The notes: generated by a model from the letters alone, not told the origin. A stretch of 64,000 bases of DNA from Clostridium sp. (GCF_036569345.1 NZ_DATCQT010000090.1:4201-68200); one strand, 5' to 3'. Shown: positions 15,230-34,754, counted from the stretch's first letter. Made by a program: numbers and translations.

Positions 15230-15237
15230 CCTTTCTT

Positions 15238-15798
15238 TTAAAAAAACATCATCTTCAGTCCAAAAAATATTAAGATTATTCCTCCAATGTAGTCTGCATA
15301 TTTACTTATAACCTCTATTTTTTTCAAATACTTAGAAATTATAAATGCCATTGTCACCATCACTAGAGTTACTACCCCAATAAATAATGTATCTTTTAAT
15401 AATATAACCTTTGTTATACTATTTAATACCGTAAATCCTACAACCATAGCATCTATACTTACTGATATTCCTAAAATAAAATACATTTTAGGTTTAAGTA
15501 ATGGACACTTTCCCTTGTTTTCAAAACCTTCTTTAATCATAACCACTCCAACTATGGATATAATCACGCCACCAATTATGGTTGGCATTGAAGCTACATA
15601 TGTATTAAAAAGAAACCCGACATAAGCCCCTATATACGATAACAAAAATTGAAAAAATGCAAAAGAAATAATAAAACAAACCTTATTTTTAAATCTAGTT
15701 TTACTATTTAAACCTATACACAAAGCTACTCCAAAAGCATCTAAAGATAGCGCTAATGCTATTATAAATAATGGGTATATTTCCATAAATGCACACAT
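15238..15798 (-). CDS. mntP: Manganese efflux pump MntP family
   Basis: [11 protein letters not shown] and [12 protein letters not shown] repeats; multi-TM. Confidence 0.85.
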
Positions 15799-16031
15799 CC
15801 CCCTCCATAATATGCTGAAATATTTTAATCTATTTCATTTATTACTATTCATATTATTAGAATTTATGTGTATAACTTTCCAACTACCATTATCAATTAT
15901 TCAGCCTTTCTTGTCAACTATGCTTTACCACTTTGCTAGCTTTTTCTAAAATTTATTTAATTAATTATTTCTTGTATATGTCTGCTTTTATAGACTATAA
16001 TATAAATGAAATTATACAAGGAGGTGTTGTG

Positions 16032-16976
16032 ATGCTTTCAATATATAGCAGTACTGAAACCAATCAGTTATCACGACTGGAAAATATAGAACCAGGTTGT
16101 TGGATTAACCTGATAGATCCATCAGATGAAGAATTAATATTTGTATCCAAAAATACTAATGCACCTATGGATTTTTTAAGAGCTGCTTTGGATGAAGAAG
16201 AAACCTCTCGTATTGATATAGAAGATTGTACATTAATTATTCTAGATATTCCCTTTACAGATATGGATGATAATTCTTTAACCTACGACACTTACCCTAT
16301 AGCTATGATCTACACTGAAACAGTAATAATCACAGTTTGTTTGAAGAACTGCAAAATGTTATTAGATTTTGCTGAAGGAAAAATCGGCTCCTTTTATACC
16401 TATAAGCGTTCAAGGTTCATGCTCCAAATTTTATATAGAATAGCAAAGTATTATCTAATATACCTAAGACAAATTGATAAAAAAAGTTCCATAGTTGAGA
16501 AACAACTACATAAAACCTTGAGAAATAAAGAGCTTCTTCAATTATTAGCATTGGAAAAATCTCTTGTATATTTTTCTACCTCTTTAAAAGGAAATGAAAT
16601 TACTCTAGAGAAAATGCTTAAACTTGAAATTCTTGATAAATATGATGATGATCAAGATGTACTCGAGGATGTTATTGTTGAAAACAGACAAGCTATAGAA
16701 ATGTGTACTATTTATAGTAACGTTTTAAAAGGAACCATGGCTGCCTATGCTTCAGTTATATCAAATAAACTAAATGTAGTAATGAAGTTTTTGGCTGCTA
16801 TTACTATAGTTATGGCTATACCTAATATGATTTCTGGACTATTTGGTATGAATGTAACTGGAATACCCTTCGGTGTTACTGATGTAGGCTTAGGTTTTTG
16901 GTATGTTGTTGCATTCATTGGACTACTAGTTATAATTGTAATTTATTTCTTAAATAAGAAAGATATGTTTAAATAA
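16032..16976 (+). CDS. corA: CorA family Mg2+/Co2+ transporter
   Basis: CWINLIDP, ALDEEETSRI, GLFGMNV signature; ATG 16032 after ggaggtg RBS. Confidence 0.9.
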   Translation: MLSIYSSTETNQLSRLENIEPGCWINLIDPSDEELIFVSKNTNAPMDFLRAALDEEETSRIDIEDCTLIILDIPFTDMDDNSLTYDTYPIAMIYTETVIITVCLKNCKMLLDFAEGKIGSFYTYKRSRFMLQILYRIAKYYLIYLRQIDKKSSIVEKQLHKTLRNKELLQLLALEKSLVYFSTSLKGNEITLEKMLKLEILDKYDDDQDVLEDVIVENRQAIEMCTIYSNVLKGTMAAYASVISNKLNVVMKFLAAITIVMAIPNMISGLFGMNVTGIPFGVTDVGLGFWYVVAFIGLLVIIVIYFLNKKDMFK

Positions 16977-16977
16977 T

Positions 16978-17004
16978 TGAAACTAAATCACTAACCTAAT
17001 CGTA
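16978..17004 (+). promoter_or_regulatory. ECF-sigma-type promoter TGAAAC-N17-CGTA
   Basis: tgaaac taaatcactaacctaat cgta, ~85 bp upstream of the 17088 gene; same motif class recurs in this locus. Confidence 0.6.
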
Positions 17005-17087
17005 ATACATATAAGCGATAAAATTATATTATTTAGAACCACTATATATATGGAGTTAAACTTTTAAATAAAAGGGGGAATAAACTT

Positions 17088-17468
17088 ATGAAAAGAAGAA
17101 AGATTTTTTATGTTACATTATTTATAGCAGCTTTTTCTACTATATCTGGAGTGATAACTTATGCAGCTGGAGTGGCTATGCCCGGCGGTACTGTAGTTAT
17201 TGGTACTAAAGCCTATGATATTACCTATGCTAATGATTCTAAAAATGAATCTGAAATTACCGCAGCGCTGCTTGCTGGTGGTGAAATTTATGTTAAAGAT
17301 TTTGGATCAAGCTGGGTTGACAATAGTACCTCGGCAATTATAAATGCTAACATACTTCCTAGTGTAACTTATAAAAGTGCAACTGGTATTATAAGCACAT
17401 ATTCAGCTGGAGATGCAGGTAATAGTACACCCGTAACTGATGAATTTAAAATACTTAGCATAGAGTAA
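17088..17468 (+). CDS. Exported protein consisting almost only of the shared surface N-terminal module
   Basis: Signal peptide then GTVVIGTKAYDITYAND..AGGEIYVKDF..WVDN..LPSVTYK. Confidence 0.8.
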   Translation: MKRRKIFYVTLFIAAFSTISGVITYAAGVAMPGGTVVIGTKAYDITYANDSKNESEITAALLAGGEIYVKDFGSSWVDNSTSAIINANILPSVTYKSATGIISTYSAGDAGNSTPVTDEFKILSIE

Positions 17469-17510
17469 TTTATTATAAAATGATTAGCTTTTTATAAATT
17501 ATAAAGGTAA

Positions 17511-17553
17511 ATAGAAGGGGTGAGATAGTCTAAGCTATCTCACCCCTTCTATT
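17511..17553. terminator. Bidirectional terminator
   Basis: aatagaaggggtgagatag-tctaag-ctatctcaccccttctatt between convergent genes. Confidence 0.85.
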
Positions 17554-17563
17554 TTTAAAAGTC

Positions 17564-17959
17564 TTAATTTTTCTTAACTGCTTCTCCCTTTTGTAAACTC
17601 AAATCTACTGAATATGCCACTTTATCATCTGCTTTTAGAAGTTTAACCGCTACCTTATCCTTTTCTTTTCTAGCTGGATAAGCTGTAGTAGGTTTACCTA
17701 TTACTGTTTTTGGTGAAACAGCCTTTCCTTCATAAAATATCTGGTATTTTACAGCACCCTTATACTGTTTTTTTCCTTCTACTGAAAGAGTTACATTTAC
17801 TACAGAACTAAAAGCAGCTTTTCTTACTGTAGCAGTAATTGGTGCACTAGCCTGAGCTTTATTGGGTTTATTATTTATATAAAACACACTAGCAATTGCT
17901 ATGACAATTATTATAATAGCCAATATACCAATCACTTTTTTATTAATATTTTTTTTCAT
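17564..17959 (-). CDS. Membrane-anchored/exported hypothetical protein with ~80-aa beta-rich domain
   Basis: Basic N-terminus plus hydrophobic helix; YQIFYEG..TTAYP..VAVKLL domain. Confidence 0.75.
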   Translation of the reverse strand: MKKNINKKVIGILAIIIIVIAIASVFYINNKPNKAQASAPITATVRKAAFSSVVNVTLSVEGKKQYKGAVKYQIFYEGKAVSPKTVIGKPTTAYPARKEKDKVAVKLLKADDKVAYSVDLSLQKGEAVKKN

Positions 17960-17999
17960 ATGTTAATTCACTCCTATTATCGATTATTTATTTACTTTA

Positions 18000-18590
18000 C
18001 TATTTAGAGTTTAAAACTGTACTTAATTTTTTAATGACTTTCTTATTAACATCCATTAGATTTATTGTAACTCCTGTTCCAGCTTCTTGCGATGGAAAAA
18101 TATTTGTTTGGATTTTTGTAATGGCTTCCATCTTAGATATTGCTTTATTTCCCAGGAAAAACTGATAATATTTATAACTACTATCAAATTTACTATTATC
18201 AATAGAAATGTCTGCTATGGATCCAAAATTTGCAGCTTTAACAAATACCGTAATACCTACTTTAGCACTTTCGACTTTTGCTTGTTCTGCTGCCTTTACT
18301 TGCTCAGCAGTAACTTTATCACCAGTACTTGTTTTATCATTCACTGATCCAGTTGTCCCTGTTGTACCAGCCGTAGAAGTTGTACCTTTTGCGCCAGTTG
18401 CATCAGTTGTTGAATTTCCTTTTGCTGTTGTTCCACCGTTCTTATCTAATCCTTCGGTCTTAATAGCGTTTTTAGTTTTATTATTTGCGTTTATCTTATC
18501 ATTCTGATTTTTGTTAATAAGTAGAAATCCAGCTATTATTACCACAATTACTACTAATGAAATTGCTATTTTTTTATAGTTTTTTTTCAT
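18000..18590 (-). CDS. Membrane-anchored hypothetical protein with Thr/Gly linker and the same beta-rich domain
   Basis: TM helix, TAGTTGTTG linker, YYQFFLG..TNIFP..VTINLM. Confidence 0.75.
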   Translation of the reverse strand: MKKNYKKIAISLVVIVVIIAGFLLINKNQNDKINANNKTKNAIKTEGLDKNGGTTAKGNSTTDATGAKGTTSTAGTTGTTGSVNDKTSTGDKVTAEQVKAAEQAKVESAKVGITVFVKAANFGSIADISIDNSKFDSSYKYYQFFLGNKAISKMEAITKIQTNIFPSQEAGTGVTINLMDVNKKVIKKLSTVLNSK

Positions 18591-18604
18591 TTGTTTTCCT
18601 CCTT

Positions 18605-19453
18605 TTACTCTGATTTAAAATATACTTTGCAGTTGCTTATATCAAAATCTTTATTAACAATATAATCTTCTGTTATAGTAAAATCATAAATTTTAGCTTT
18701 ATGAGGATTTACATTTACATTTTCAATATTAAAGATGCCTTTAGCCACTACTTCCCCTGAATCATCCTTAACTATAATTGGTAATCTTTCTAATTTTACG
18801 ACTTTGTCACAACCATTACGGATTAGAAAAACTATAGAAATAGAATTATTTAAACACTTTAATACTTTAAATACCTCAATATTCACATCTCCAGCTTTTA
18901 TTAAAGGTAATTCATTTAAAAATTTTGTAAAAGTACCTTCTAATTCATGGTGAACATCACCAGGAAATCCCTCAAATTGAACCTGTACAGTATTTATAGC
19001 ACTAATAGATTTTTCAAATTTTATTTTCCAATCATCCTTTGAAATTGAATCAACAAATAAGCTAGTCTTATCAAAATAAACTTTATATGGTCTTGCAGAA
19101 AAAGGAGGTAATATACCAAAATCGTTCATGTCCATAACTTGTTTTGCAAGTATATCTCCATTATTGTTTACAATTACTAGTGGCACTTTGTCAAAATTAA
19201 TCTGTTTTGACAATCCATTTCTTAAATAAACACTAACCTCAATTTTATTTTCTATTTCAAAGGTGTATATACCATTGATAGATACTTGTCCTTCTTCCAT
19301 AGGTGGTAGTGTATCTAATTCTTCTCTTAAAAATTCCTTTTGATAATCTGACATAACCCCTTTATCATAATCATTAAGATACAGCTTTATATTTAGCGCC
19401 TTTTTTTCTTTTGTCGTTACATTATTGCTTGCTATTAAATTATTACTTGTCAT
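18605..19453 (-). CDS. SLAP-domain (duplicated) S-layer assembly-associated protein
   Basis: Two repeats VYLRNG..VPLVIVNNNGDILAK and FLIRNG..LPIIVKDDSGEVVAKG typical of SLAP domains. Confidence 0.75.
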   Translation of the reverse strand: MTSNNLIASNNVTTKEKKALNIKLYLNDYDKGVMSDYQKEFLREELDTLPPMEEGQVSINGIYTFEIENKIEVSVYLRNGLSKQINFDKVPLVIVNNNGDILAKQVMDMNDFGILPPFSARPYKVYFDKTSLFVDSISKDDWKIKFEKSISAINTVQVQFEGFPGDVHHELEGTFTKFLNELPLIKAGDVNIEVFKVLKCLNNSISIVFLIRNGCDKVVKLERLPIIVKDDSGEVVAKGIFNIENVNVNPHKAKIYDFTITEDYIVNKDFDISNCKVYFKSE

Positions 19454-19568
19454 ATTTAATTCCCCCTAATAGGTCCATATATCTCATTATTTATTATAAT
19501 TACTACTAATTATACCATATAATTCTTAAACAAATAATTAACTTTAATTTTATTCGTCCACAGTAAAT

Positions 19569-19594
19569 TACGCTAAACCTAACAAATAGTTGCA
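19569..19594 (-). promoter_or_regulatory. ECF-type promoter TGCAAC-N16-CGTA
   Basis: Minus strand tgcaac tatttgttaggtttag cgta upstream of the SLAP gene. Confidence 0.6.
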
Positions 19595-19663
19595 CTTCAT
19601 TTTTGAGATAATAAAATAATTTATTATATTTTTATTTGGTAATCATTTCTCATTCAAAAAATT

Positions 19664-19704
19664 AAGTAGCCTGAAACAGTTCTTTACTCCGTTTCAGGCT
19701 GCTT
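19664..19704 (-). terminator. Terminator hairpin downstream of the S-layer-like gene
   Basis: aagtagcctgaaacag...ccgtttcaggctgctt; near-identical to 22321-22352. Confidence 0.7.
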
Positions 19705-19713
19705 GGCCTTATT

Positions 19714-22050
19714 TTATTTATTCCCAATAGTTACATTTGCAGTTGCTTTAATAATAGAATCAACTACTGATTCCACAACTATAGAATCAGTCCCTGTTAT
19801 TACTCCAGTGTATGTTACATACATTTTTTTATCAACATCATCATAATTAACTACTGCAATAACCTTAGTTCCATTTACTATTTTAACCATAGTGGGATCA
19901 GTTATAACTTTTCCATATTGGTCAAGTACAACTATTTCTTTTTTTACAGCAACTCCCACAATTAATGAAACATTTACGTCTACAATTGTTATAGATTTTA
20001 TTGCACTTTTAGCTCTTACAATTACGTTTAATGTATCTTTAATAACATCAACCTCATCTATTGCTTTATTACCAACTGTTACAATTAATGTTGTGTTTTC
20101 CACAAAACTATTAACTGAAGTTTTGCTAGGATCAAATTTCACAGCTAATCCCTGTGCCCCAGCAAAGTCAGTTTCAATAATAGATCCTTGTGCATCATGT
20201 TTATAATAAATAAGGCTTGCAAAACCAGAAGCTTCCTTTATTCCATTTTTAGTGGAAATTCTCCAATTCGTAATATCAGGAATTATTTCATCCCCCTTAT
20301 TGTCTACTACACTTAGGACCCTATAAACAGGAGCCGTAGCATTAGCTATAATACTATTATCTCCAATGTTATTTCCAAGTTCAATCGACTTAAGTGTTGT
20401 AACCTCTGCCGATATTTCTAAATTATAGGTTGCAACCGTACCATTCACGTTTATATTTATTATATAATTCCCAGCAGCCTTAGCCTCAAACCTTAATGAC
20501 TTAACAACTCCAGTGGTTGCTACTTGCCCATCTTTATCTAATTTTTCAACTATTACATTATTAGATGTTATCCCATCATCACTATAAACTAAAGCAGTGA
20601 CATTATCACCTGCAACGTCTATAACTTCATTATTAGCATTTCTTATTACTAAATTTGCGTTTTGTTTTGTATTAACTTTAAGCTTTGGTAATGTTATAGA
20701 ATCAATTGTGGTTGTAACTGGATTTATGGTAGTTACTACATCAAATTTAGCTGCTTTTATAGTATCCTCTGCATCAAATGAAGTTCCTATATATGGAGTG
20801 ACTTCATAATTTCCAGCTTTTAATGTTCTAGCACTAATTACTATATTGTTTTTATAATAATCAGTACCACCTCTAAGTGATGCTGTAACTACTATATCAC
20901 TGGCCGAAATATCACTAGTTTTAGGAGTTACATTAAATTTAATCATATCAGGTGTTAATAAAGCACCATTATTTTGAGTTATTTTATTATATTTAACATC
21001 TTCATTATTAAACTTAGTAATTGGATTTTCGGAAGTTAACGTGAGCCCTGTAAGTTTTGTTGCTCCTACCTCAACTGTATAAGTAACTTTGACACCATTA
21101 AGAATGTTATAAGCACTTATAGTTACTGTACCAGCTTTTATAGCTTTAAAAGTAACGGTATTCACAGTTGTATCTAATGTTAATTTGCTACTATTAAGGT
21201 CAGAAGTACTATCCAGTAAGTTGCCACCCACCTCAACTATCCATCTTAATTTATTAATTGATAAATCTGTAGGGTTGTTATATTGGTCGCGTACATCGAC
21301 TCTTAAAATTACTGCCGCATCCCCAACTAAGACAGTATCTGCGGATGTTGTCACCGATAAAATTGACTTAGGGGATATTGGCTCATCCTTCCCTACTGTA
21401 TAATTATTGCTTATTGAAGATACTAATTCAGCAGTTGAAGATACCGCATCTTTATCAAATTTTTCTAACATTATAACTACAGCGTCATTTTCAGTTAATT
21501 TTTTATTTATTGTGATTTTTGCCATATTTCTATCTGTATCCAATCTTATTTCTGCATCACTTAAAGGCACTCCGTTTACTGTTGCCGTTACTTTATATGA
21601 AGAATCTGTTACGATATTGAAATCTTTTCCATATTGATCTACAGCTGTAAAATAAGCAAAATTAGATATATTTGTAATTTCATTTGTTACACTAGTAAAT
21701 GTTTTTGGATAGGCTGTTTCCTTAACAACTTGGTTTGTATCTGCAGCATCAAATCCAATTGTTTCATTACCATCTTTGTAAACAACGGCTGGTATAAGGC
21801 TTGTAGCTATAGGAAGTCCTGTAACATTATCTATCCAATCTCCATTGAAATTTTTAACATAAACTGGTCCACCTTCAACTATTGCATTAGTGATTTCACC
21901 CATATTTAATGGATCATTAGAATATCCTAAATCAAAAGCTTTATCCCCTATTACCATTGTTCCATTCTTCATTGCTGCAATCGTCGTAATAGATGTTAAG
22001 GCTGCCATCATTAAAGCAGCAAGGACTGAACTTGCAATTTTCTTGTTCAT
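19714..22050 (-). CDS. S-layer-like/Ig-fold surface protein with shared N-terminal module
   Basis: Signal peptide, shared module, then ~670 aa of Thr/Val-rich beta repeats (AVDQYG, VRDQYN, VLDQYG). Confidence 0.75.
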   Translation of the reverse strand: MNKKIASSVLAALMMAALTSITTIAAMKNGTMVIGDKAFDLGYSNDPLNMGEITNAIVEGGPVYVKNFNGDWIDNVTGLPIATSLIPAVVYKDGNETIGFDAADTNQVVKETAYPKTFTSVTNEITNISNFAYFTAVDQYGKDFNIVTDSSYKVTATVNGVPLSDAEIRLDTDRNMAKITINKKLTENDAVVIMLEKFDKDAVSSTAELVSSISNNYTVGKDEPISPKSILSVTTSADTVLVGDAAVILRVDVRDQYNNPTDLSINKLRWIVEVGGNLLDSTSDLNSSKLTLDTTVNTVTFKAIKAGTVTISAYNILNGVKVTYTVEVGATKLTGLTLTSENPITKFNNEDVKYNKITQNNGALLTPDMIKFNVTPKTSDISASDIVVTASLRGGTDYYKNNIVISARTLKAGNYEVTPYIGTSFDAEDTIKAAKFDVVTTINPVTTTIDSITLPKLKVNTKQNANLVIRNANNEVIDVAGDNVTALVYSDDGITSNNVIVEKLDKDGQVATTGVVKSLRFEAKAAGNYIININVNGTVATYNLEISAEVTTLKSIELGNNIGDNSIIANATAPVYRVLSVVDNKGDEIIPDITNWRISTKNGIKEASGFASLIYYKHDAQGSIIETDFAGAQGLAVKFDPSKTSVNSFVENTTLIVTVGNKAIDEVDVIKDTLNVIVRAKSAIKSITIVDVNVSLIVGVAVKKEIVVLDQYGKVITDPTMVKIVNGTKVIAVVNYDDVDKKMYVTYTGVITGTDSIVVESVVDSIIKATANVTIGNK

Positions 22051-22182
22051 ATGTTTTTACCTCCATTTTAAGTTTGATTTTTCATATTTAATATTAACAC
22101 CCTTAATTAAACATTAATTAAGGATTAATTTCTTTCAACTACTATAATTCCCTGGATATGTTTACATTTTTTACACTTATAT

Positions 22183-22209
22183 AACGTTTATTCTGACAAT
22201 ATAGTTGCA
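22183..22209 (-). promoter_or_regulatory. ECF-type promoter TGCAAC-N17-CGTT
   Basis: Minus strand tgcaac tatattgtcagaataaa cgttatat. Confidence 0.65.
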
Positions 22210-22320
22210 CTTTTATTAAGGTTTTTATATTTATATTTTTCGTGGGTGTCTTTGTGGGACTGTTATTGACTAAATATCCTTGAGACATAGTAAATTATTA
22301 CAACACCAAAAAATGAAAAA

Positions 22321-22352
22321 AGCCTGAAACAAAGCTTGACTCCGTTTCAGGC
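22321..22352 (-). terminator. Terminator hairpin downstream of acyltransferase
   Basis: agcctgaaac-aaagcttgactcc-gtttcaggc, flanked on the + strand by an A-run. Confidence 0.65.
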
Positions 22353-22361
22353 AAATTAATC

Positions 22362-23420
22362 TTAATGTTTTATAAATGTTACCTTTTTCCCCAACTTCAC
22401 AAATGGTGTTTCTAAATATTTATATGATATTAAAGAAATTATTATTGTAGAAATAATTGCTAATATGAATTGGAAAATTGGATTAGTCAAGCTAAAATAT
22501 TTATGAAGAACTATTCCAACATACACATTCACTACTGGATGTAACAAATATATAGAATAAGTAGCAATTCCTAAAATTTCTAATTGATATCTTATAATTT
22601 TGGGAACTGAAAAATCCATTTTATAAAATGATATAACTATACAAATTGATAAAATTGAAAAAATAGCTCTACCCATTCCAGTTATTAATACAATTTGATT
22701 CCCTTTAAATGGTAGTGTAATAAAACAGATCAAACAAACTATTAAAAGTACAATATTCATTTTTTTAGTTACTTTTATTTGTTTAAGATTATAAAAAATC
22801 GCTATCCCCGTAATATATAAATATAAATTATTAAAAGGATTAATATAAATTTGCCATTGATATGATAAATTCATTGTGGGTATTAACAAAATCTGAGAAT
22901 AATGAAAACCAATTAAAACTGTAAATAGAAAAAATAAATTCCCAAATAATATTTTTTTGTTGTACAAAAATATAATTAAAGGTGTAAATACATAATAAAG
23001 CATTTCGGATCCAATAGACCAAGTTCCCACAGCAATATAATCACTTGGTTTAATGAGTCCAACAGTTGTAGTAAGATTAAGAATTATATTAATAATAGAA
23101 TTACCCTGTTGGTTAAACGGTACTGGGTGAATAATAATTAATAGTGTAACCACCCACAATAAGGGCCAAATTCTAAATATTCGTCTTATAAAAAAGTATA
23201 AGGATGTTCTGATATCTTTTATATACCTACTATACACAATTGCCATACTCAATCCAGAAAGAATGAAAAATATGGATACTCCATAGATTCCTAACCTTCC
23301 TAAAACTGATCCAGCATTTAATTTGAAAAATGTTAATCCCACTAAATGGTACAACATAAGACTTAAGGCCATTAATCCCCTTAGCCAATCTAAAGATTCA
23401 ATGCGATTTTTATTTTTCAT
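22362..23420 (-). CDS. Acyltransferase family 3 (OafA-like) membrane protein
   Basis: RIESLDWLRGL, GVSIFFILSG, RRIFRIWPL, TWSIGSEM, YSIYLLH, YKYLETP. Confidence 0.9.
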   Translation of the reverse strand: MKNKNRIESLDWLRGLMALSLMLYHLVGLTFFKLNAGSVLGRLGIYGVSIFFILSGLSMAIVYSRYIKDIRTSLYFFIRRIFRIWPLLWVVTLLIIIHPVPFNQQGNSIINIILNLTTTVGLIKPSDYIAVGTWSIGSEMLYYVFTPLIIFLYNKKILFGNLFFLFTVLIGFHYSQILLIPTMNLSYQWQIYINPFNNLYLYITGIAIFYNLKQIKVTKKMNIVLLIVCLICFITLPFKGNQIVLITGMGRAIFSILSICIVISFYKMDFSVPKIIRYQLEILGIATYSIYLLHPVVNVYVGIVLHKYFSLTNPIFQFILAIISTIIISLISYKYLETPFVKLGKKVTFIKH

Positions 23421-23780
23421 TTCTAACCCTCTTATAATTTTATTTTTATGATTATTTGCCCAATTATTACTTTAGTTAATAAAAAAATTTAAAAAGTAAC
23501 AATTTTAATCCATGAAGTTGACATTAATAGTCTATCACTTTTCTCATCAATTATCATATTTTTTTAATAAAATTTAAACAAAATTAAAATTTAATCTATA
23601 TAGTTACAATATATTTACACTAAATCCATCCTATTTTAGCGTTTTATGACGTTTCCGTTTAAATTTTAGCATATTATAATACTTTGAAGTGAACACAAAA
23701 ATAGAACCGTCAACAAGATGACGCTAAAATAGGCATGAGATCTTTTTCTCATGCCTGTTTACTTTTCTTAAACTTCTATT

Positions 23781-25304
23781 TTATTGTAATAAAATACTAT
23801 CAGGGAATTTTTCATTAATCCAATTTTTAATCTCATTTGGCATATCACTAGCCCCTCGTTCAGTAGTATAATATTGAACTATAGCATTACCCATAGAATC
23901 AATATGTGAGAAAGCTAATCTAATATTTCCATTTTCGTCTAATTGTATGATACCTTCCATTATTGTGAATAAGCCAGGCTTTCCTCCAACTATTGTATAA
24001 GTTTTATTGATGTCATTATATTCTATATCTGTGGATATTGAATACATACAATCTTTAAATAGATCATAGTCAATTCCTAGTAATTCTTTAATCTTAGTAT
24101 CCACAACTGGTTCAGTAAATAAGTTGTAACTTTCATCTAATCTATTTTTGTAATTTGCAACAATATCGCCCACTGGATCCACATTTTCTATAACAAAATC
24201 TTTAAATATAATATTTCTATAAAAAGCATTAACTGCAGTATAATCATTAATTTGATTGCCCTTTAAATATAACTCTGTCAAGTTAATAAGTCCTCTTAAA
24301 GGTTCTATGTTAGTAATTTGATTGTACTCTAAATACAACCTATTCAAGTTAGTAAGTACACTTAAAGAGTCTAGATTACTGACTTGATTGAACCTTAAAG
24401 AGAACGTATTTAAAGTTATTAATCCTTTTAAAGGTTCAATGTTGCTTATTTTATTGTAATCTAAAAATAACTGAGTTAAGTTAGTAATCCCTCTTAACGC
24501 ATCTATGTTACTGATTTGATTGTTATCAGAAAGTAACGTAGTTAATTTAGTCATTCCTCTTAGAGAATCCATATCGCTAATTTGATTGTTATCTAAATCC
24601 AACTCAGTCAAGTTAGTTAATCCTCTTAAAGGTTCTATATTGTTGATTTGGTTGCTTTGTATATACAGCTCATTCAAGTTAACTAATCCTTTTAATGGTT
24701 CTATGTTGCTTACTCGGTTGTAACATAACCACAAATATTTCAAGTTAGTTAATCCTCTTAAAGGCTCTATGTTGCTAACTTGATCGTAAGATAAAACCAA
24801 TTTAGTTAAGCTGGTCAATTTTTCGATCCCTGAAAGATTTGTTATATTTTTCGATGGAATATTCAGTTCTGTTATTGTATCCACATCGCCTTTTAAAATA
24901 TCTCCAGTAGGTTTATTAATTTCATTTCTAACTTCCTTTTCTAAATTCTGATCTGGAAATGTAATAATTGTACTACTATCCACAACATCTTTATCTTGCG
25001 CATCATAATTAATTTCTTTATCAGCATTGGTATAAATTACAGCTGGTATAACATTTGCGTCAACAGGCTCACCACTATTATTGTCAATCCAAATTCCATC
25101 GAAACCTTTAACATAAACTTCTCCACCTGCAATTATTGCATCGGCAATTTTCTGAAGATTAACTGGGTCATTAGCATATTCTAAGTCAAAAGCCTTGTTT
25201 CCTATTACAACAGAACCACTCGTCATTGATGCAAACGCTGTGAAATATGTTGATCCTGCAATCATTAAAGTAGCTAGTGCAGTACTTATAATTTTCTTGT
25301 TCAT
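23781..25304 (-). CDS. Internalin-like LRR surface protein with shared N-terminal module
   Basis: Shared module, cap ITFPDQNLEKEVR, ~9 22-aa LRRs (LRGLTNLTELDLDNNQISD), unrelated C-terminal domain. Confidence 0.88.
   Translation of the reverse strand: MNKKIISTALATLMIAGSTYFTAFASMTSGSVVIGNKAFDLEYANDPVNLQKIADAIIAGGEVYVKGFDGIWIDNNSGEPVDANVIPAVIYTNADKEINYDAQDKDVVDSSTIITFPDQNLEKEVRNEINKPTGDILKGDVDTITELNIPSKNITNLSGIEKLTSLTKLVLSYDQVSNIEPLRGLTNLKYLWLCYNRVSNIEPLKGLVNLNELYIQSNQINNIEPLRGLTNLTELDLDNNQISDMDSLRGMTKLTTLLSDNNQISNIDALRGITNLTQLFLDYNKISNIEPLKGLITLNTFSLRFNQVSNLDSLSVLTNLNRLYLEYNQITNIEPLRGLINLTELYLKGNQINDYTAVNAFYRNIIFKDFVIENVDPVGDIVANYKNRLDESYNLFTEPVVDTKIKELLGIDYDLFKDCMYSISTDIEYNDINKTYTIVGGKPGLFTIMEGIIQLDENGNIRLAFSHIDSMGNAIVQYYTTERGASDMPNEIKNWINEKFPDSILLQ
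24230..24860 (-). repeat. 66-bp tandem coding repeats (LRR units)
   Basis: Recurring agttagttaatcctcttaaaggttctat-like units at 66-bp period inside the LRR gene. Confidence 0.8.
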
Positions 25305-25349
25305 TTATTTTTACCCCCATTTTATTGAGTTTAATTTCCCCGCGAAATA

Positions 25350-26915
25350 TTAGTTAAAAACAGGAATATCAAAAGTTAATGTAACGTCTGGAAATAAGTC
25401 GAAACAACTTTTAATGATTCTTATTTGACTATTTGCCCAATTAACATCTGTTGCATATTGATGATAAATATTTAAAGGGTTCCATCTCATTTTATAAAGC
25501 GTATTTTGGTAATTTCCTATATACCCTTTCGAAATCCATGCTGCCCCTCCATAAATTGCTAAATCTATACTTGTCCACCCATTTGTGAATGCAGTGCTTG
25601 TACCAAATGCATCCGGATCACTGTCAATTGCTCCAATACCAAATAAATTATACACAGGAATCCCATTTGTATAGTTTCCACTAGAATCTTTTGTACCACC
25701 ATTTGCTAAAAGTGAAGTGCCATATCCCGTTTCCAAAATCGCATGAGCCGCCAAATATATAGGATTAACATTATTTGCTTTTGCTGCATCAATAAACACT
25801 TGACCCTTACCCTTTAATGTACCATTAGATCCGAATACTGAATCCAATTGAGCCGCAGTTACACAATCAACATAATTCAATACTATAAACTCATAAATTT
25901 TTGCTGAATCATTTTCTAAATTTAAAGGATCTACATTTTTTACAAGTTGATCTTTAATACTATTATAAACTGCTAATGAATTTACCCAAGATCCATTAGG
26001 ATTCTTCATATCCGTAAAGTATCCTGGTTGTCCATTTTTTATTAAAGCATAACACCATTGACCATTAATAGCTGCTGCAGGTGTATTTAACATTTCTTGG
26101 CTAATAAAATCACTTAATAAAACATCATATTTTGTTAAAGTAAATGTATTATCTCCCTTAGATACTAATGCATCCAATACATTAATATTAGCTATTCTAA
26201 CATTAAACTCTTCTTTTTTAGTAGTATCTTTAACAACTCCTACAATTTCAGTTGCTGTTGTTACATCAACATTCATTCTAGAAGTTTCTGCTACTTTAAC
26301 TGCTGTTTCTGCCGCATCAATATTTGCTAAATCAGGATTTACTCCAACTACAACATTAACAGTTATATCTGGTTTTGTTCCGGTTACACCCTCTGGGAGT
26401 GCATAATCACCATTGAATATATACGATGATGTCTTTGTTTCATCATAATTAGAGCTTGTCCAAGTAACGTCAACCTCTTTAGTTGTATTATTACTTAATT
26501 TAAGTGTTACTTTTGCTGGCAAATTGGCATTAGCAACTGTTGTTCCGTAAACTACATTGATAGTATTAAAAGGATTAACTGATATTATATTCACTTGATC
26601 TTTATCTGCAGCATCAAAATTAATTTGTTTATCCACACTCTTATACACTACAGCTGGTATAACACTAGCTTCTACGACTTCACCTGTATTATTGTTAATC
26701 CAAATTCCATCAAACCCTTTGACATAAACTTCTCCAGCTGATAGTAATGCATTAGAAATTTGATAAAGATTAGCTGGGTCATTTGCATAAGCTAAATCAA
26801 AAGCTTTACCACCTATAGCAACAGTACCACTAGGCATTGCAGCAAACGCAGTGAAAGATGTAAATCCTGCTATCATAATGGCAGCAAGAACAGAACTTGT
26901 AATTTTCTTGTACAT
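25350..26915 (-). CDS. Surface glucosaminidase (GH73) with shared N-terminal module and Ig-like domain
   Basis: AAKANNVNPIYLAAHAILETGYG, YNLFGIGAID, TLYKMRWNP..HQYATDVNWA. Confidence 0.88.
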   Translation of the reverse strand: MYKKITSSVLAAIMIAGFTSFTAFAAMPSGTVAIGGKAFDLAYANDPANLYQISNALLSAGEVYVKGFDGIWINNNTGEVVEASVIPAVVYKSVDKQINFDAADKDQVNIISVNPFNTINVVYGTTVANANLPAKVTLKLSNNTTKEVDVTWTSSNYDETKTSSYIFNGDYALPEGVTGTKPDITVNVVVGVNPDLANIDAAETAVKVAETSRMNVDVTTATEIVGVVKDTTKKEEFNVRIANINVLDALVSKGDNTFTLTKYDVLLSDFISQEMLNTPAAAINGQWCYALIKNGQPGYFTDMKNPNGSWVNSLAVYNSIKDQLVKNVDPLNLENDSAKIYEFIVLNYVDCVTAAQLDSVFGSNGTLKGKGQVFIDAAKANNVNPIYLAAHAILETGYGTSLLANGGTKDSSGNYTNGIPVYNLFGIGAIDSDPDAFGTSTAFTNGWTSIDLAIYGGAAWISKGYIGNYQNTLYKMRWNPLNIYHQYATDVNWANSQIRIIKSCFDLFPDVTLTFDIPVFN

Positions 26916-26991
26916 ACACTTATTCCTCCCTATGGCAGTTATATTTTACATGTTTTCTATAATTATAGTTTTTCAAGTTTTACACCAATAT

Positions 26992-27018
26992 AACGCTTAC
27001 TAGGACAATATAGTTGCA
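26992..27018 (-). promoter_or_regulatory. ECF-type promoter TGCAAC-N17-CGTT
   Basis: Minus strand tgcaac tatattgtcctagtaag cgttatat. Confidence 0.65.
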
Positions 27019-27257
27019 TTTTTTATACTATTAATATGTACTATTTATTTAGCGATACTTCTGTTCCATCAACTAAATTATAGAAATTCACTTTGTAATT
27101 GATAGAGCATGGATTTCTACTAATATCCTCAATTCCAGTAATAGAAAATTGAGAAGAACAGCTACACGCTATCCTTCTCAATTTTTTAATGAATATCACC
27201 AAATTTAGGCCTTTAAAAGTACTAAATACAATAGTATCAAACTTATCTATACTATAT

Positions 27258-28100
27258 TTATAAAACTATTGGAGCAACTAAAATCACATCAATTATTTTA
27301 ACTACTGTTCCAGCTGTATTTAATAATTTAATTGTAACTGTATCTCCAACAACTTTTCCTGGGTATATTATTGTATCTGTTCCCAAATTAGCAATATTTG
27401 ATAAAACTCTTATTCCATCAAATATTTGGTATTGTGTAACGCCCTCTTGAGTTGACGTAACGCTTACTTTTGCTCCAATAGTAGCTGCTTGTACCGTTGC
27501 AATGACTAGTGTTTGTATTGGATTTTTAACTATAACAGTACAAGTTGAAGTCTTACTTCCATCCACTGTTGTTACCGTTATAGTTGCTGTCCCAGCACCT
27601 ACTGCTATTACCTTTCCGGTATTATCTACTGTTACTACCTTATTATCTGAAGATGCCCATGTTACCTTTTTATTTGCTGCATCTGTTGGGTTTATTATAG
27701 CTATTAAATTATCTGTTTTACCTACTATAAGAGAATCTGTGGTTTTATCTAAACTCACTGATTTAACTGGTGTGGCAATTTTCTCTTGATCTTCAGCACC
27801 ATAATTAATATCCTCATCATCACTCTTATAAACTACAGCTGGTATAACCTTTTCTTCTACAGCTTTATCTGTATTATTGTCAACCCAAATTCCATCAAAA
27901 CCTTTAATATAAACTTCCCCACCAGCCATAATTGCACTAGTTATTTTTTCGATATTAACTGGATCATTAGCATACTGTAAATCAAAAGCTACGTTACCTA
28001 TAACAAGACTACCCCTCGGCATTGCAGCAAAAGCTGTGAAAGATGTCACTCCTGCTATCATTAATGCAGCAATAGCTGAGCTTATAATTTTCTTATTCAT
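27258..28100 (-). CDS. Surface protein: shared N-terminal module, Big_2 Ig domain, C-terminal beta domain
   Basis: VKSVSLDKT..PTDAANKKVTWASSD..VDNTGKVIAVGAGTATITVTTVDG Big_2 pattern. Confidence 0.87.
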   Translation of the reverse strand: MNKKIISSAIAALMIAGVTSFTAFAAMPRGSLVIGNVAFDLQYANDPVNIEKITSAIMAGGEVYIKGFDGIWVDNNTDKAVEEKVIPAVVYKSDDEDINYGAEDQEKIATPVKSVSLDKTTDSLIVGKTDNLIAIINPTDAANKKVTWASSDNKVVTVDNTGKVIAVGAGTATITVTTVDGSKTSTCTVIVKNPIQTLVIATVQAATIGAKVSVTSTQEGVTQYQIFDGIRVLSNIANLGTDTIIYPGKVVGDTVTIKLLNTAGTVVKIIDVILVAPIVL

Positions 28101-28333
28101 ATATTTATACCCCCTTTTATTTTTAAATCTTAATTTTAATATAAAGCCTATACATTTTTAATATAATTTTTAAATTTTACTATCTAATCCTTATATTTAT
28201 ATATATCGTCTACATTTTTAAATAGTTTATAGTCAACATCATTTATTTTAACGACAAAGAAACTACTGAAATATATATTTCAGTAGTTCCATAGTAATGT
28301 GTAACTTACATATGTTTGTTGCAATTTTTAATC

Positions 28334-29329
28334 TTACTTTGGAGCTACAACTGTGCTCTGATCCAAAGTCACAGCAGTCTGTGCAAGTAGTCTACCATTT
28401 ATTGATGCATTAGTCCCTAGATCGATATTTGTCTTGCTCATTATATTTCCCTCAAAGTGCGAATTAGTTCCAATCGAAACTGTTCCCGCTGCCTGCCAGA
28501 ATATGTTCTTGGCTTGTGCTCCACCCGTTAGGATAATTTTAGCTCCGCTAGCTTGGGTAATTCCTTTAGCTATTTGGAAAATAAAAATATCGTTTGGTCC
28601 ACCACTTAGAGTTACATCAGAATTTATTAAAACATCTGTACCCCACTTGTAAACACCAGCCCTAAGTGTTTTGCCACTAATATCTCCAGTATACAGTTCT
28701 GTATAACCCGCAGCTCTTCCAGCAGCATCTGTGTATGCTGTTTCCATGTTGCTTACAGCTGTAGTTAGGTCACTTGGAGTTGTAGAACCATAATCCGAAG
28801 CATATACCATCCCTGTAATTTGGCTGGAAACTGAAAATTCATTAGTGGCATCAGCTGTCAAAGAAAATCCAGTAATGGCAGTCGAACCAATTGGGCTAAC
28901 TCCTATATTCCCAGTAATAATACTATTTGGTACGGAAGATATTCCCGATTTCGATAAAATAGCATAATTACCAGCAGTCCCAAGATTTACTGGAGCTACG
29001 TTAACGTAATCTTTATCTGCAACATCAAAGTTAGTTATTACTCCAGTAGCATTTTTATAAACTACAGCTGGTATAATACTTTCGTCTACAACTTCATTCG
29101 TATTATTGTTAATCCAAACTCCATCAAATCCTTTAACATAAACTTCAACATCTGAAGCTATCGCACTACTGATTTCATCAACATTTTTAGGGTCATTAGC
29201 ATACCCTAGGTCAAAAGCTTGGCCACCTATTACTACTGTACCATTATGCATTGCAGCCACCGCCGTCAAAGATGTTGACCCTACTATCATTAAAGCAGCA
29301 AGAACTGTACTTGTAATTTTCTTATTCAT
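28334..29329 (-). CDS. Ice-binding protein (DUF3494/IBP-1 fold) with shared N-terminal module
   Basis: VNLGTAGNYAILSKSGIS, ITGNIGVSP, METAYTDAAGR, TLRAGVYKW, FIFQI, GGAQAKNIFWQ, GRLLAQTAVTLD. Confidence 0.92.
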   Translation of the reverse strand: MNKKITSTVLAALMIVGSTSLTAVAAMHNGTVVIGGQAFDLGYANDPKNVDEISSAIASDVEVYVKGFDGVWINNNTNEVVDESIIPAVVYKNATGVITNFDVADKDYVNVAPVNLGTAGNYAILSKSGISSVPNSIITGNIGVSPIGSTAITGFSLTADATNEFSVSSQITGMVYASDYGSTTPSDLTTAVSNMETAYTDAAGRAAGYTELYTGDISGKTLRAGVYKWGTDVLINSDVTLSGGPNDIFIFQIAKGITQASGAKIILTGGAQAKNIFWQAAGTVSIGTNSHFEGNIMSKTNIDLGTNASINGRLLAQTAVTLDQSTVVAPK

Positions 29330-29402
29330 ACATTTATTTCTCCTTTTGTGGATTAATTTTACCTATTTACTATTAATAGTTTTTTACGTTTTATACTTAT
29401 AT

Positions 29403-29429
29403 AACGATTACCACAACAATAAAGTTGCA
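29403..29429 (-). promoter_or_regulatory. ECF-type promoter TGCAAC-N17-CGTT
   Basis: Minus strand tgcaac tttattgttgtggtaat cgttatat upstream of the ice-binding gene. Confidence 0.65.
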
Positions 29430-29908
29430 TTTTTGTATATTTTTTATAATTAGTATAAATTAAACCATTATGAATCAAATATTAATTAAGCTTAAAATTT
29501 TCTAAAAGCTATTATTAAACTTAATGCTTTTCATTTTTTACACTTATATAAAACACGTTATGACAATATATTTTTTCTTTTTAAACGTTTTTATGATTAA
29601 TCTATAAATAAAATACCTATGTTCCTCTTTACATTAAAAAACTATGATGATGAAACTGCAGTATTAGTCTATATTTGTTCCACGAAAATTAAAGGATTAT
29701 GACATGTAACGTTGAAGTAAATAATTCGGGGATTTTTATAAAAAGTATCTAGCTCTCTTCAGTTATTTACTTCCACGTCTTCATAATTTAACCTTTCATT
29801 AACATATAATAATTATAGTTATACAGAATAAATGCATATAAAATTATGTGTTTGTTCTATCGAGGGTACAATTTCAATGTTACTAAAAAATTTGGGGGAA
29901 TATAAAAA

Positions 29909-31993
29909 GTGAAAAAACTAACGACACTATTAATAACAACAGCATTAACATCAGCAGTAATTTTAGGTACAAATACTTTGATAACTCAAAGTAAGTCCAA
30001 AGCGCCAATCAAAAGCAATGTTTCTATTGCAAGACAAAAAACATTGTTATCCGAAAACACACCAGTTCCTGAGAAAGAGCTACTAGCTAAAGATAATGTT
30101 GATGTTTTGGCTATAAAAAAAACTACGACTCTTGCTTTAGATAATGCAAAACAAGCAGAAGCTATCAAATCGGCACAAATTGCTGCAACTGCTGGAAAAC
30201 AAGAAGAAATTGATAGAATAGCGGCTGAGAGACCAGCTACGTCTAAGCAGCCTGCAATAGCAAAAAATAATGTAACCCCACAGCAGAAAACTGCGAGTGT
30301 ACAAAGAGCTAATCTAGCTACAGCAAACACAAGTAGTCTAACTCAAGATGAAGAAGATGAAGCTGCTGCAGCAGCAGCTGAAGCGGCAGCAGCCGAAGCA
30401 GATAGGCTAGCTCAGATAGCAGCAGCTAACCATGCTATACTAATGCGTAACCAAACAGTAACTACAACAAGATTATCATCTTACTTAACACCTGCAGCTA
30501 ATGTTATTAGTGTACTAAACAGAGCTGTAGCACTCCATAGTGGAGATCCAGCAAATAATTGTGTTTATTTTTCAAGTGAAGCATTGAGAAGAATAGGTGT
30601 ATCAGTTCCACTAGCAACATGCAATACAGGACAATATTTATCTTATTTTCGTGCACATGCATGGATAACCTCGTCCGCAATTAAAGAACTTATACCAGGA
30701 AATATTTGTTTTACTACTAACGGCTGGAATGGCTATCCTACTCATACCTTTGTATTTATGGGATGGGTTACTGACGGAGACTATACTTGGGCATATGTAG
30801 CAGACAACCAAGGTACCTCTGTTCATGTACGTAACATGGGTGCAACCACTGAAACAGATGCTTTTGCTTACTATGTGCATACACCTACCACTCCTCAAGC
30901 ATTTGCTGCATTATCATCGGGATATAACAGTATTTATGTTGGTTGGAACACCGTAGCTGGAGTGAGTGGATATGAAGTTTCCAGAGCAACATCAAGTAAT
31001 GGAAGTTACACTTTAATAGCAACAACTTCAGCAACAAGGTTTAACAATACAGGACTTACAACCAATAATGCTTATTATTACAAAGTTAGGTCATATAAAG
31101 TAGTTGGTTCGGTTAAACAGTACAGTCCCATTTCAAATACAGTAAGTTCAAAACCAATACCATCTGCGCCATCAACAATAAGAATAGCTTCATCTTCATA
31201 TAACAGTATCAATACTATTTGGCTCGCTATAGCTGGAGCTAATGGATATGAAGTTTATAGTGCAACATCAAGTGACGGATTATACACTTTAATGTCTAAT
31301 ACTACAGCCCTAAGTTATAAGGATACTGGACTTACAACAAATAGTACTTATTACTATAAATTTAGATCATATAGGATGGTTGGCAGTGTAAAAATCTTCA
31401 GTGTTTTCTCAAATCCTATAAGTTCAACACCAATACCATCACCTCCAAAATCAGTTAACGCAACATCATCTTCACCTAGCAGTATAACTACTAGTTGGAA
31501 TACTGTAACTGGAGCAGCTGGATATGAAGTTTACGGTGCGCTATCAAGTAACGACACATACAATCTTTTACTTGATACTACCGGAAATAGTTATAACAAT
31601 ACTGGTCTTACAACATATAACAATTATTTCTATGTAGTTAGAGCATATACTATGGTTGATGATATAAAAGTGTACAGCAATTGGTCAATCGTAGTTAGTG
31701 CACATCCAGTACCAGCAGGCCCAGTAAATCTTGTAGCTACTAGAAAAAGCTCTAGTATTATTAGACTTACTTGGAGCCCCATAACAGGAGCGAGTGGTTA
31801 TGAAGTATATAAAGCTACCTCAAGTACTGGAACATATAGCTTATTATCAAGCATGTCATCTCCATATCAATATTATACAAATTATAATTTAACAACAGGA
31901 AAAACTTATTACTATAAAGTAAGATCGTTCCTAACTGTTGGGAATACAAGAATATATGGTAATTGGAGTACAGTAGTACATGCTACAACATAG
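29909..31993 (+). CDS. Secreted protein: Ala-rich stalk, papain-like (NlpC/P60/CHAP-like) domain, four fibronectin type III repeats
   Basis: NNCVYFSSEAL...PTHTFVF Cys/His pair; 4x W..V.GA.GYEVY.A.S..G.Y...Y.YKVRSY. Confidence 0.75.
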   Translation: MKKLTTLLITTALTSAVILGTNTLITQSKSKAPIKSNVSIARQKTLLSENTPVPEKELLAKDNVDVLAIKKTTTLALDNAKQAEAIKSAQIAATAGKQEEIDRIAAERPATSKQPAIAKNNVTPQQKTASVQRANLATANTSSLTQDEEDEAAAAAAEAAAAEADRLAQIAAANHAILMRNQTVTTTRLSSYLTPAANVISVLNRAVALHSGDPANNCVYFSSEALRRIGVSVPLATCNTGQYLSYFRAHAWITSSAIKELIPGNICFTTNGWNGYPTHTFVFMGWVTDGDYTWAYVADNQGTSVHVRNMGATTETDAFAYYVHTPTTPQAFAALSSGYNSIYVGWNTVAGVSGYEVSRATSSNGSYTLIATTSATRFNNTGLTTNNAYYYKVRSYKVVGSVKQYSPISNTVSSKPIPSAPSTIRIASSSYNSINTIWLAIAGANGYEVYSATSSDGLYTLMSNTTALSYKDTGLTTNSTYYYKFRSYRMVGSVKIFSVFSNPISSTPIPSPPKSVNATSSSPSSITTSWNTVTGAAGYEVYGALSSNDTYNLLLDTTGNSYNNTGLTTYNNYFYVVRAYTMVDDIKVYSNWSIVVSAHPVPAGPVNLVATRKSSSIIRLTWSPITGASGYEVYKATSSTGTYSLLSSMSSPYQYYTNYNLTTGKTYYYKVRSFLTVGNTRIYGNWSTVVHATT

Positions 31994-32065
31994 AGTATAA
32001 AACTAAAATCTCAATTAAAAAGACATCTTATCATAGGATTTAACCTAAGGTAAGGTGTCTTCTTT

Positions 32066-32123
32066 AATTCGGGTGGTGCCTGGCACCCTGCGGGTAATGC
32101 CTGTCACTTCGCGACAAAATTCG
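32066..32123. repeat. REP-like palindromes at the 3' flank of the RAYT gene
   Basis: aattcgggtggtgcctggcaccc and cgggtaatgcctgtcac, then acaaaattcg. Confidence 0.75.
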
Positions 32124-32128
32124 TTTTA

Positions 32129-32686: not shown

Positions 32687-32836
32687 GGTTTTATTAATTA
32701 TACTTAGAATATTCCCAATAATATTAATTTAAATCATTATTCAGTACATTTTTAAACACAAAAAGAGAACCGCCACTTAAATGACGATTCTTACTTTTTA
32801 TTTATTCTGCTATGCTGGTCCAAGTTCTCATTTTTC

Positions 32837-32898
32837 CACAAAATTCGGGCGATGCCTGACTCCCTTCGGGTGACAAAATTCGGGTGGTGCCTGTCACC
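32837..32898. repeat. REP-like palindromes on the 5' side of the RAYT gene
   Basis: acaaaattcgggcgatgcctgactccc and acaaaattcgggtggtgcctgtcacc; same consensus as 32066-32123. Confidence 0.75.
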
Positions 32899-32916
32899 TT
32901 TCTATAATGTCACCTA

Positions 32917-34110: not shown

Positions 34111-34302
34111 ATTCTCCCCCCAATGTTTTTATATTTATATATTACCATGTATACCAGATTAATTTTAAGCTTTAATTTAGAAAGTTGCAAATAATTTTTT
34201 CTTTAAATTTACCATCTGTCGAAATCTAGTGGAAATTAGCACAAAAAATATCTACTATTAAAAGGGATTATTCTATATAATATAGAATAAGTAATATATG
34301 AA

Positions 34303-34385: not shown

Positions 34386-34407
34386 TGTAAACAGGTTGGT
34401 TTTTTTT
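34378..34407 (+). terminator. Riboswitch expression-platform terminator
   Basis: ccaatctgt-gtaa-acaggttgg followed by T8. Confidence 0.8.
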
Positions 34408-34744: not shown

Positions 34745-34754
34745 GGAACATAAC

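Follow-up and report, generated by a model that had tools for sequence, protein, structure and literature searches.

A putative ECF-type promoter box shared by surface-protein genes in the psychrophilic Clostridium estertheticum group

Introduction

In Bacillus subtilis, the factors sigmaM, sigmaV, sigmaW and sigmaX, which govern cell-envelope stress regulons, recognize promoters made of a TG(C/A)AAC -35 element, a 16-17-nt spacer and a CGT-containing -10 element. Surface-protein genes such as the cwp operon of Brevibacillus brevis and slpA of Lactobacillus have multiple tandem promoters, of the housekeeping type and mutually different, and in cellulolytic clostridia SigmaI/RsgI control cellulosome genes. 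The group 5 sigma factors TcdR, BotR, TetR and UviA, characterized by an SRQ marker in region 4.2, read promoters with TTTACA at -35 and GTTATA at -10 (PMC4031146). Here we describe a putative promoter of the extracytoplasmic function (ECF) type that recurs upstream of surface-protein genes in a 64,000-nt stretch of Clostridium sp. (hereafter the window), which corresponds to positions 4201-68200 of contig C90 in the 4.72-Mb draft genome G000 (30.7% G+C). Codes in G and L designate sampled genomes and retrieved loci, and codes in C the contigs of G000. Related loci bear the names Clostridium estertheticum, C. tagluense, C. frigoris and C. frigoriphilum, which places the host in the psychrophilic C. 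estertheticum group.

This element, a box of ~60 nt, resembles the Bacillus ECF promoters in its -35 type, its spacer and its CGT -10, as well as in the envelope-acting nature of its targets (an autolysin, polysaccharide genes and a secretion helper), but it differs from them in its length, in the 15 nearly invariant bases that follow CGT, in its phased A-tracts and in its tandem arrays. Its targets also differ from those of the Bacillus regulons, since they form a surface-display family that includes an ice-binding-like protein, and the box itself is confined to one psychrophilic Clostridium lineage. With the TcdR-type promoters of toxigenic clostridia the box shares GTTATA at -10, but its -35 is TGCAAC and its spacing is one base longer. 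As in cwp and slpA, two to four tandem promoters precede one abundant surface-protein gene, although the tandem copies are here repeats of one ECF-type box. The lineage-specific alternative sigma, sensing anti-sigma and exported modular protein family that we propose recall SigmaI/RsgI, but neither the sigma family nor the promoter motif is the same, and we saw no sign of several paralogous sigma/anti-sigma pairs. Tandem arrays of identical alternative-sigma promoters and a very long conserved -10/start block are the unusual features of this system, and our literature search retrieved no description of an ECF-type regulon including a probable major surface protein in clostridia, nor of an S-layer under ECF control in clostridia or C. 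estertheticum. The existence of a real ECF-type surface regulon, with two classes of sites and a candidate sigma factor, is partly supported by the evidence presented below.

Results and discussion

A long conserved box surrounds the TGCAAC-N17-CGTT sites

The motifs reported in a first-pass annotation of this DNA are all present in the window (those on the minus strand had been listed by their low ends), and the five good ones do lie on the strand of the next gene. TGCAAC-N17-CGTT occurs three times, at 22183-22209, 26992-27018 and 29403-29429, always (-), against 0.01 +/- 0.10 matches expected from 100 dinucleotide shuffles, and TGMAAC-N16-CGTA has two matches where 0.04 are expected, one of them before a slaP-like gene (19569-19594, (-)) and the other inside a gene (54688-54713). 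The ECF-type architecture attributed to these sites is supported: the -35 contains AAC, the spacer is rigid at 16/17 nt and the -10 is CGT. Their distance to the downstream gene had been put at ~85-135 bp; we measured 136, 80, 77, 119 and 87 nt from CGT to the start codon for the sites at 22183, 26992, 29403, 19569 and 16978, respectively. The weaker ATAAAC-N16-CGAT motif, which had been counted as a member, exists but falls under the threshold of a matrix derived from the good copies, and probably represents either a degenerate box or a fortuitous match.

The TGCAAC-N17-CGTT sites are the core of a ~60-nt box, hereafter class A, with the layout AAAA..AAA(G/A)TGCAACTAwAwT, ~8 variable bases and then AAaCGTTATATAAGTGTAAAA. 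Its -35 block is GTGCAACTAwAwT, preceded by two phased A-tracts reminiscent of an UP element. Neither this longer box, nor a decayed tandem copy, nor six additional boxes on other contigs had been noticed in that annotation. The genome-wide matrix scan that the first-pass annotation had suggested, run with a matrix built from eight box copies, retrieved nine sites with scores of 42-62, far from the next best position (23); the genome maximum, 61.6, belongs to the box of the 778-aa protein gene (Table 1). A scan with an 18-mer and four mismatches yielded noise alone in the AT-rich G000. All nine class A boxes of G000 are located in surface loci, three in the window and six on other contigs, and their -35 is nearly invariant TGCAAC except in two of the nine, which have TGAAAC.

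The genes behind these nine boxes comprise six display-module genes, a Big_2 surface protein gene, a module gene heading the Wzz-CpsB-CpsD cluster and a gene for a 41-aa peptide. The display module is a ~100-aa N-terminal region (MNKKI.S..LAALMIAGSTSFTAFAAM.NGTVVIG.KAFDL.YANDP.N...) common to exported proteins encoded at 17-30 kb of the window, where the majority of genes are on the minus strand. It carries different passengers, including a GH73 glucosaminidase, leucine-rich repeats (LRR), Big_2, an ice-binding-like domain and, in the 778-aa protein, a region without Pfam match. Judging from gene order, the Wzz-CpsB-CpsD cluster appears to be co-transcribed with the 242-aa module gene that precedes it.

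Some boxes are repeated. A decayed copy lies upstream of the ice-binding-like gene, followed by a decayed leader palindrome (~29450-29470, (-)) and then by the intact box of this gene, so that box-plus-leader units duplicate in tandem and then erode. One decayed box also accompanies the three intact tandem boxes of the Big_2 gene (C70:68337-68977), which is separated from them by a leader of ~410 nt.

Table 1. Position of the promoter-like sites, terminators, leader palindrome and surface-protein genes (coordinates are those of the window unless a contig is given)
Feature	Coordinates	Strand	Details
Class A box before 778-aa gene	22168..22229	(-)	GTGCAAC -35 at 22204-22209, 17-nt spacer, CGTTATATAAGTGTAAAA from 22186 downwards
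Class A box before glucosaminidase and LRR genes	26977..27038	(-)	TGCAAC 27013-27018, CGTT 26992-26995, score 56.2
Class A box before ice-binding-like gene	29388..29449	(-)	TGCAAC 29424-29429, CGTT 29403-29406, score 57.4
Decayed tandem class A copy	29545..29590	(-)	TGCAAC lost, insertion in CGT region, TTTTATATAAGTGTAAAA kept
Three tandem class A boxes, 113-115 nt apart	C70:68709/68824/68937		before 600-aa secreted Big_2 protein, then 1340-aa module protein
Class A box	C70:76059		before 242-aa module protein, then Wzz-CpsB-CpsD-CapD polysaccharide genes
Class A box	C70:57222		before module-Big_4-Big_2-SH3 protein
Class A box	C178:29454		before 41-aa membrane peptide beside CapD-like gene
Class B putative ECF-type promoter	19569..19594	(-)	GTGCAACTATTT, 16-nt spacer, CGTAATTTA; before slaP-like gene
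SigmaA-type extended -10	19509..19517	(-)	TGgTATAAT, ~50 nt downstream of class B site
Looser ECF-type site	16978..17004	(+)	TTGAAACTAAAT, 17-nt spacer, CGTAATA; before 126-aa module-only gene
Weak ATAAAC-N16-CGAT motif	28205..28230	(-)	before Big_2 module gene; below scan threshold
Intrinsic terminator	22322..22352	(-)	closes upstream unit just before box of 778-aa gene
Intrinsic terminator	28259..28290	(-)	after ice-binding-like gene
Terminator-like hairpin	19669..19699	(-)	GCCTGAAAC...GTTTCAGGC; after 778-aa gene, before slaP promoter; read from sequence
Terminator-like hairpin	27149..27181	(-)	TTGAGAAG...CTTCTCAA + TTTT; after Big_2 gene, before box at 27018; read from sequence
Perfect palindrome in 5' leader of 778-aa gene	22082..22104	(-)	CCTTAATTAAtgtTTAATTAAGG; recurs ~70 nt upstream of module-gene start codons
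126-aa protein	17088..17468	(+)	diverged display module alone, 41% identity to module
282-aa SLAP-domain protein (slaP-like)	18605..19453	(-)	related to accessory-Sec S-layer assembly proteins; TIGR04398, 208 bits
778-aa exported protein	19714..22050	(-)	N-terminal display module; no Pfam match
507-aa protein	23781..25304	(-)	display module + leucine-rich repeats; gene 2 of glucosaminidase unit
521-aa protein	25350..26915	(-)	display module + Big_4 + GH73 glucosaminidase domain (autolysin-like enzyme)
280-aa protein	27258..28100	(-)	display module + Big_2
331-aa protein	28334..29329	(-)	display module + ice-binding-like (DUF3494) domain

The box marks a surface-gene regulon in one lineage

With up to three mismatches allowed, 14 of the 24 other congeneric genomes carry the box, in one to six copies each, and none of those sampled from ten other genera of the order does; reversed-pattern controls matched once elsewhere and never within the genus. 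Among 401 genomes of the family, the box was recovered in 17 of 30 genomes of the genus and in none of 58 other genera, where the single match with one mismatch also breaks the AAC core. When the spacing was left free (N16 or N17), all 52 sites retrieved had N17 and CGTT. Congeners devoid of the module family are also devoid of the box.

From 37 non-redundant copies, collected across the C. estertheticum group and representing at least ten species, we computed an information profile. Counting from the T of TGCAAC, high values are limited to ~-20 to +48 and drop within the spacer; each TGCAAC position carries 1.5-2.7 bits, compared with 0-0.3 bits in the upstream flank and the leader. Such a profile has the signature of a selected bipartite protein-binding site, as opposed to recently copied DNA. 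The boxes are intergenic and have the sense of the downstream gene, with 93-194 nt from the T of TGCAAC to the start codon in 16 loci and, where boxes are arrayed in tandem, ~380-445 nt from the last of them. Arrays of two to four boxes occur before the same type of Big_2 gene in G009, G010, G024 and G284, and before a CWB2-type gene in G017.

The genes behind the box are not all related to each other. Besides module genes, they include orthologues of the Big_2 protein gene (G010, G024), the Wzz-CpsB operon directly (G001, G005, G015), a SLAP paralogue (G020) and a CWB2-type protein (G007, G017), which we recognized by eye from its GxDRYxTA..ARGDDLADALA repeat. Because these genes are mutually unrelated, the box qualifies as a regulon signal rather than as DNA duplicated together with them. 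The latter explanation, already envisaged in the first-pass annotation, would see in the motif functionless 5' sequence copied along with paralogous module genes; most downstream genes do share the N-terminal module, and the decayed copy at 29545-29590 demonstrates that box-plus-leader units duplicate. However, conservation stops at the limits of the box, the spacer varies freely in sequence at a fixed length, genes without the module are also preceded by it, and it has been maintained across at least ten species, all of which makes this explanation scarcely credible. The idea of one regulon covering the S-layer-like, SLAP, autolysin and ice-binding genes is thus upheld as far as a surface-gene regulon conserved across species is concerned, but not as a single class of sites, since these fall into two (see below). 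For the accompanying suggestion of a response to envelope or cold stress, what support there is comes from the gene content.

Each box heads its own transcription unit

The upstream neighbours of the box-bearing genes end in terminator hairpins (Table 1) and, therefore, each gene or gene pair is a unit of its own, in agreement with the previous proposal that the motif marks separate transcription units. Two of these hairpins were read directly from the sequence; the one at 19669..19699 was missed by the terminator pattern scan owing to its short T-run. The LRR gene starts 45 nt behind the glucosaminidase gene, and the two appear to constitute one operon.

An alternative to an ECF-type factor is that housekeeping sigmaA reads the box with the help of a DNA-binding regulator, the conserved blocks being operator or activator sites. 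Highly expressed surface protein genes are classically driven by sigmaA, the A-tracts and the 15 conserved bases that follow CGT go beyond what ECF promoters usually need, and the -10 block contains TATAAG, which matches TATAAT at five of six positions. Nevertheless, TATAAG is the sole -10-like hexamer of the box and ends in a conserved G, where sigmaA needs T; it lacks a TG extension, and 17 nt ahead of it there is nothing like a -35 hexamer. The conserved upstream block (~-40 to -27) sits where a -35, and not an activator site, is expected, with the A-tracts at the position of an UP element, and the invariant positions are exactly TGCAAC, N17 and CGT. In a pattern scan, sigmaA-like sites were not enriched in the region (66 versus 83 in shuffles) and no strong one coincided with the boxes. 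We therefore consider a sigmaA-read box distinctly unlikely.

At the RNA level, an Rfam covariance search of positions 16000-35000 gave nothing on the boxes, its only match being a c-di-GMP-II riboswitch at 34304-34387, and the leaders do not fold better than shuffled sequences. A near-perfect palindrome (CCTTAATTAAnnnTTAATTAAGG) is found ~55-80 nt 5' of many display-module start codons (window 22082-22104, C70:76145) and in loci L044, L046 and L048-L051 at ~1420-1445, as well as before operon-internal genes without a promoter box. This leader palindrome may be an RNA hairpin acting as a processing or stability signal, or else an operator.

A second class of sites and looser variants

Sequence comparison separates the sites into the tight class A and a class B of the form TGCAAC-N16-CGTA, represented in the window by the site preceding the slaP-like gene. 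The pattern of the latter (GTGCAACTATTT, 16 nt, CGTA(A/G)TTTA.AGTGG) is kept upstream of orthologues in 13 other species. Most upstream regions of these slaP-like orthologues also keep TATGrTATAAT, so the slaP-like gene probably has two promoters, one of class B and another of sigmaA type. Regarding the looser site at 16978, orthologues in two other species (L070, L071) have the same -35 and -10 but a different spacer. Since there are intermediate forms, such as the TGAAAC-N16-CGTATATAA that precedes module genes in L060 and L064, the classes grade into each other. Two similar sites, TGCAACTTAAAC-N-CGTAT, occur elsewhere in G000 at C69:2535 (+) and C44:335 (-), the former ~330 nt upstream of the flagellar genes flgB-flgC-fliE-fliF.

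Candidate sigma factors

The G000 genome encodes four ordinary ECF sigma factors (on contigs C139, C29, C25 and C104) and a multicopy sigma-like gene; we searched the surface contigs for a further sigma gene and detected none beyond the tandem sigma-like pair at 40347-41575. The C139 operon (C139:14633-16454) codes for a 170-aa ECF sigma (14633-15142) and a 440-aa membrane protein (15132-16454) whose homologues are named TolB family. This sigma passes the general sigma70-ECF superfamily model but stays under the cut-off of every named equivalog model and is the equivalog of no named Bacillus ECF; as in Bacillus ECF systems, the operon is itself preceded by a promoter of the same broad type as those of its putative targets. 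This self-promoter, TGCAACTAAATATAA-N7-CGTATATTA (also written ATGCAACTAAATATAA-N7-CGTATATTA), is conserved in 14 of the 16 orthologous upstream regions retrieved, the other two being cut by contig ends, and belongs to class B.

The distribution of the C139 sigma points in the same direction. It is encoded in every >90%-complete genome that has the box, and the two slaP-bearing genomes without it (G019, G021) are also without the slaP site. Across 25 genomes its presence is associated with TGCAAC-type promoters (2 x 2 counts 15, 1 and 2, 7; p = 0.0005, phylogeny ignored), whereas that of the C29 ECF is not (p = 0.23). Half-site scoring ranked the -35 half of the C139 promoter in the top 155 of 9.4 million positions, with a matrix that is over-tight, coming from 37 near-identical copies. 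The SigV-like (C25) and SigY-like (C104) ECFs are each missing from several box-bearing genomes, and we discarded them as the cognate sigma. The putative anti-sigma with TolB-family homologues (C139:15132-16454) is only ~50% identical between species versus 85-90% for its sigma partner, so this sensor evolves much faster than the sigma.

The evidence is shared between two operons, since the C139 operon matches class A at -35 but has N16 and CGTA, whereas the C29 operon matches in the -10 block but differs at -35; the full class A box precedes neither. Recognition by the C29 ECF sigma (C29:38535-39505; a 172-aa sigma with a zinc-finger anti-sigma) is a coherent possibility in that its self-promoter, TGAAGT-N17-CGTTATAT(T)AAGTGTAAGG, kept in all 14 orthologues retrieved, has the 17-nt spacing and the CGTTATAT..AAGTGTAA block of class A, and 13 of 15 box-bearing genomes encode this sigma. 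Its conserved -35 (TTGAAGTGTTT), however, is without the AAC core and agrees with TGCAAC at only three of six positions, and the AAGGA within the common block is the ribosome-binding site of the C29 gene. The C29 sigma also occurs in seven of ten boxless genomes, without association with the box (p = 0.30), and was not found in G023, which has both the box and a module gene. We regard this reading as unlikely. The C29 operon (upstream region C29:38480-38535; L013-L026) additionally encodes, next to its zinc-finger anti-sigma, two small membrane proteins, and its conserved self-promoter can be written TTGAAGTGTTT-N-AATCGTTATATTAAGTGTAAGGA, with a -10/start block nearly that of the surface box.

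Another candidate is the multicopy sigma-like protein encoded at window 40347-40889 (-). In G000, G003, G005, G007 and G008, a copy of its gene lies within the surface locus or next to it, and GTTATA, found at -10 in TcdR/BotR/UviA-type promoters (PMC4031146), is part of CGTTATATAAG in the class A -10 block. Against this, the box -35 is not TTTACA, and the SRQ marker of the TcdR-type group is absent from region 4.2 of the window sigma-like protein, as it is from the C139, C29, C104 and C25 sigmas. Moreover, the gene exists in all 24 congeners, boxless ones included, G001 has six boxes with no sigma-like copy near them, and the region 5' of the sigma-like gene's own downstream gene has no box-like sequence. 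A role of this protein in reading the box is accordingly very unlikely. The sigma-like gene is paired in the window with that of a region-4-only protein (the pair spans 40347-41575 (-)), has further copies on C13, C14 and C65, and is present in one to five copies in every genome of the genus examined.

Among these factors, the C139 sigma is favoured as the cognate one, with slightly less than an even chance; a small share goes to the C29 sigma, and the rest of the probability is divided among other solutions or combinations.

A model for the coordinated expression of the surface coat

From these comparisons we infer promoter function, start site, sigma identity and signal as follows. The recurrent motif would rather probably form the core of a promoter specific to this lineage and recognized by an ECF-type alternative sigma, the autoregulated C139 ECF most likely reading class A and class B alike. 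RNA polymerase carrying the cognate sigma would begin inside the conserved AAGTG, ~7-10 nt past CGT, and transcription would then run through a 60-400-nt leader into the gene. Release of the C139 sigma from its anti-sigma would switch on the whole surface programme. More generally, one alternative sigma probably switches on the whole surface coat together.

Several observations weigh against recognition of class A by the C139 sigma. The C139 self-promoter is one base shorter in spacing, has CGTA in place of the class A CGTT and is devoid of the ATAAGTGTAAAA extension, and the class A -10/start block is closer to the C29 self-promoter CGTTATAT(T)AAGTGTAAGG. The C139 sigma is encoded in G006, G013 and G018, which have no class A box, and in G002, which has one; with four boxless or nearly boxless genomes possessing it, this sigma is not dedicated to the box. 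The co-occurrence test mentioned above takes no account of phylogeny. In addition, the 15 nearly invariant bases after CGT surpass the needs of ECF -10 recognition, which suggests an extra factor or a role at the RNA level. Finally, induction by stress, the usual mode for ECF sigmas, sits uneasily with tandem promoters in front of a gene that seems to encode a major surface protein.

A more speculative and rather doubtful scheme can also be envisaged, in which a lineage-specific ECF sigma dedicated to the surface coat would be active in normal (cold) growth instead of responding to stress. It would drive the major surface protein through two to four identical promoters, together with the capsule operon, the autolysin and the display-module family, including the cell-anchored ice-binding protein, and the 15 post-CGT bases and the leader palindrome would provide a second shared control, either as an operator or as an RNA 5'-end signal.

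The box and its one or two candidate sigmas offer a testable handle on surface building in the psychrophilic, meat-spoiling C. estertheticum group, one that would cover display proteins, the autolysin, the ice-binding-like protein and capsule genes. As a compact and very specific natural promoter, the box could also find use as an expression part, or help to locate surface genes in genomes of this group.

Other features of the surface locus

The identification of the 600-aa Big_2 protein as an S-layer protein was considered and found unsupported, its homologues being named only 'Ig-like domain-containing'. The slaP-like protein also scores 165 bits with TIGR04399, under the cut-off of that model. 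The c-di-GMP-II riboswitch (RF01786, 68.5 bits) is on the (+) strand, 5' of an 87-aa open reading frame, and the margin of the surface locus carries an IS200-like (Y1 transposase) gene (window 32129-32686, (-)).

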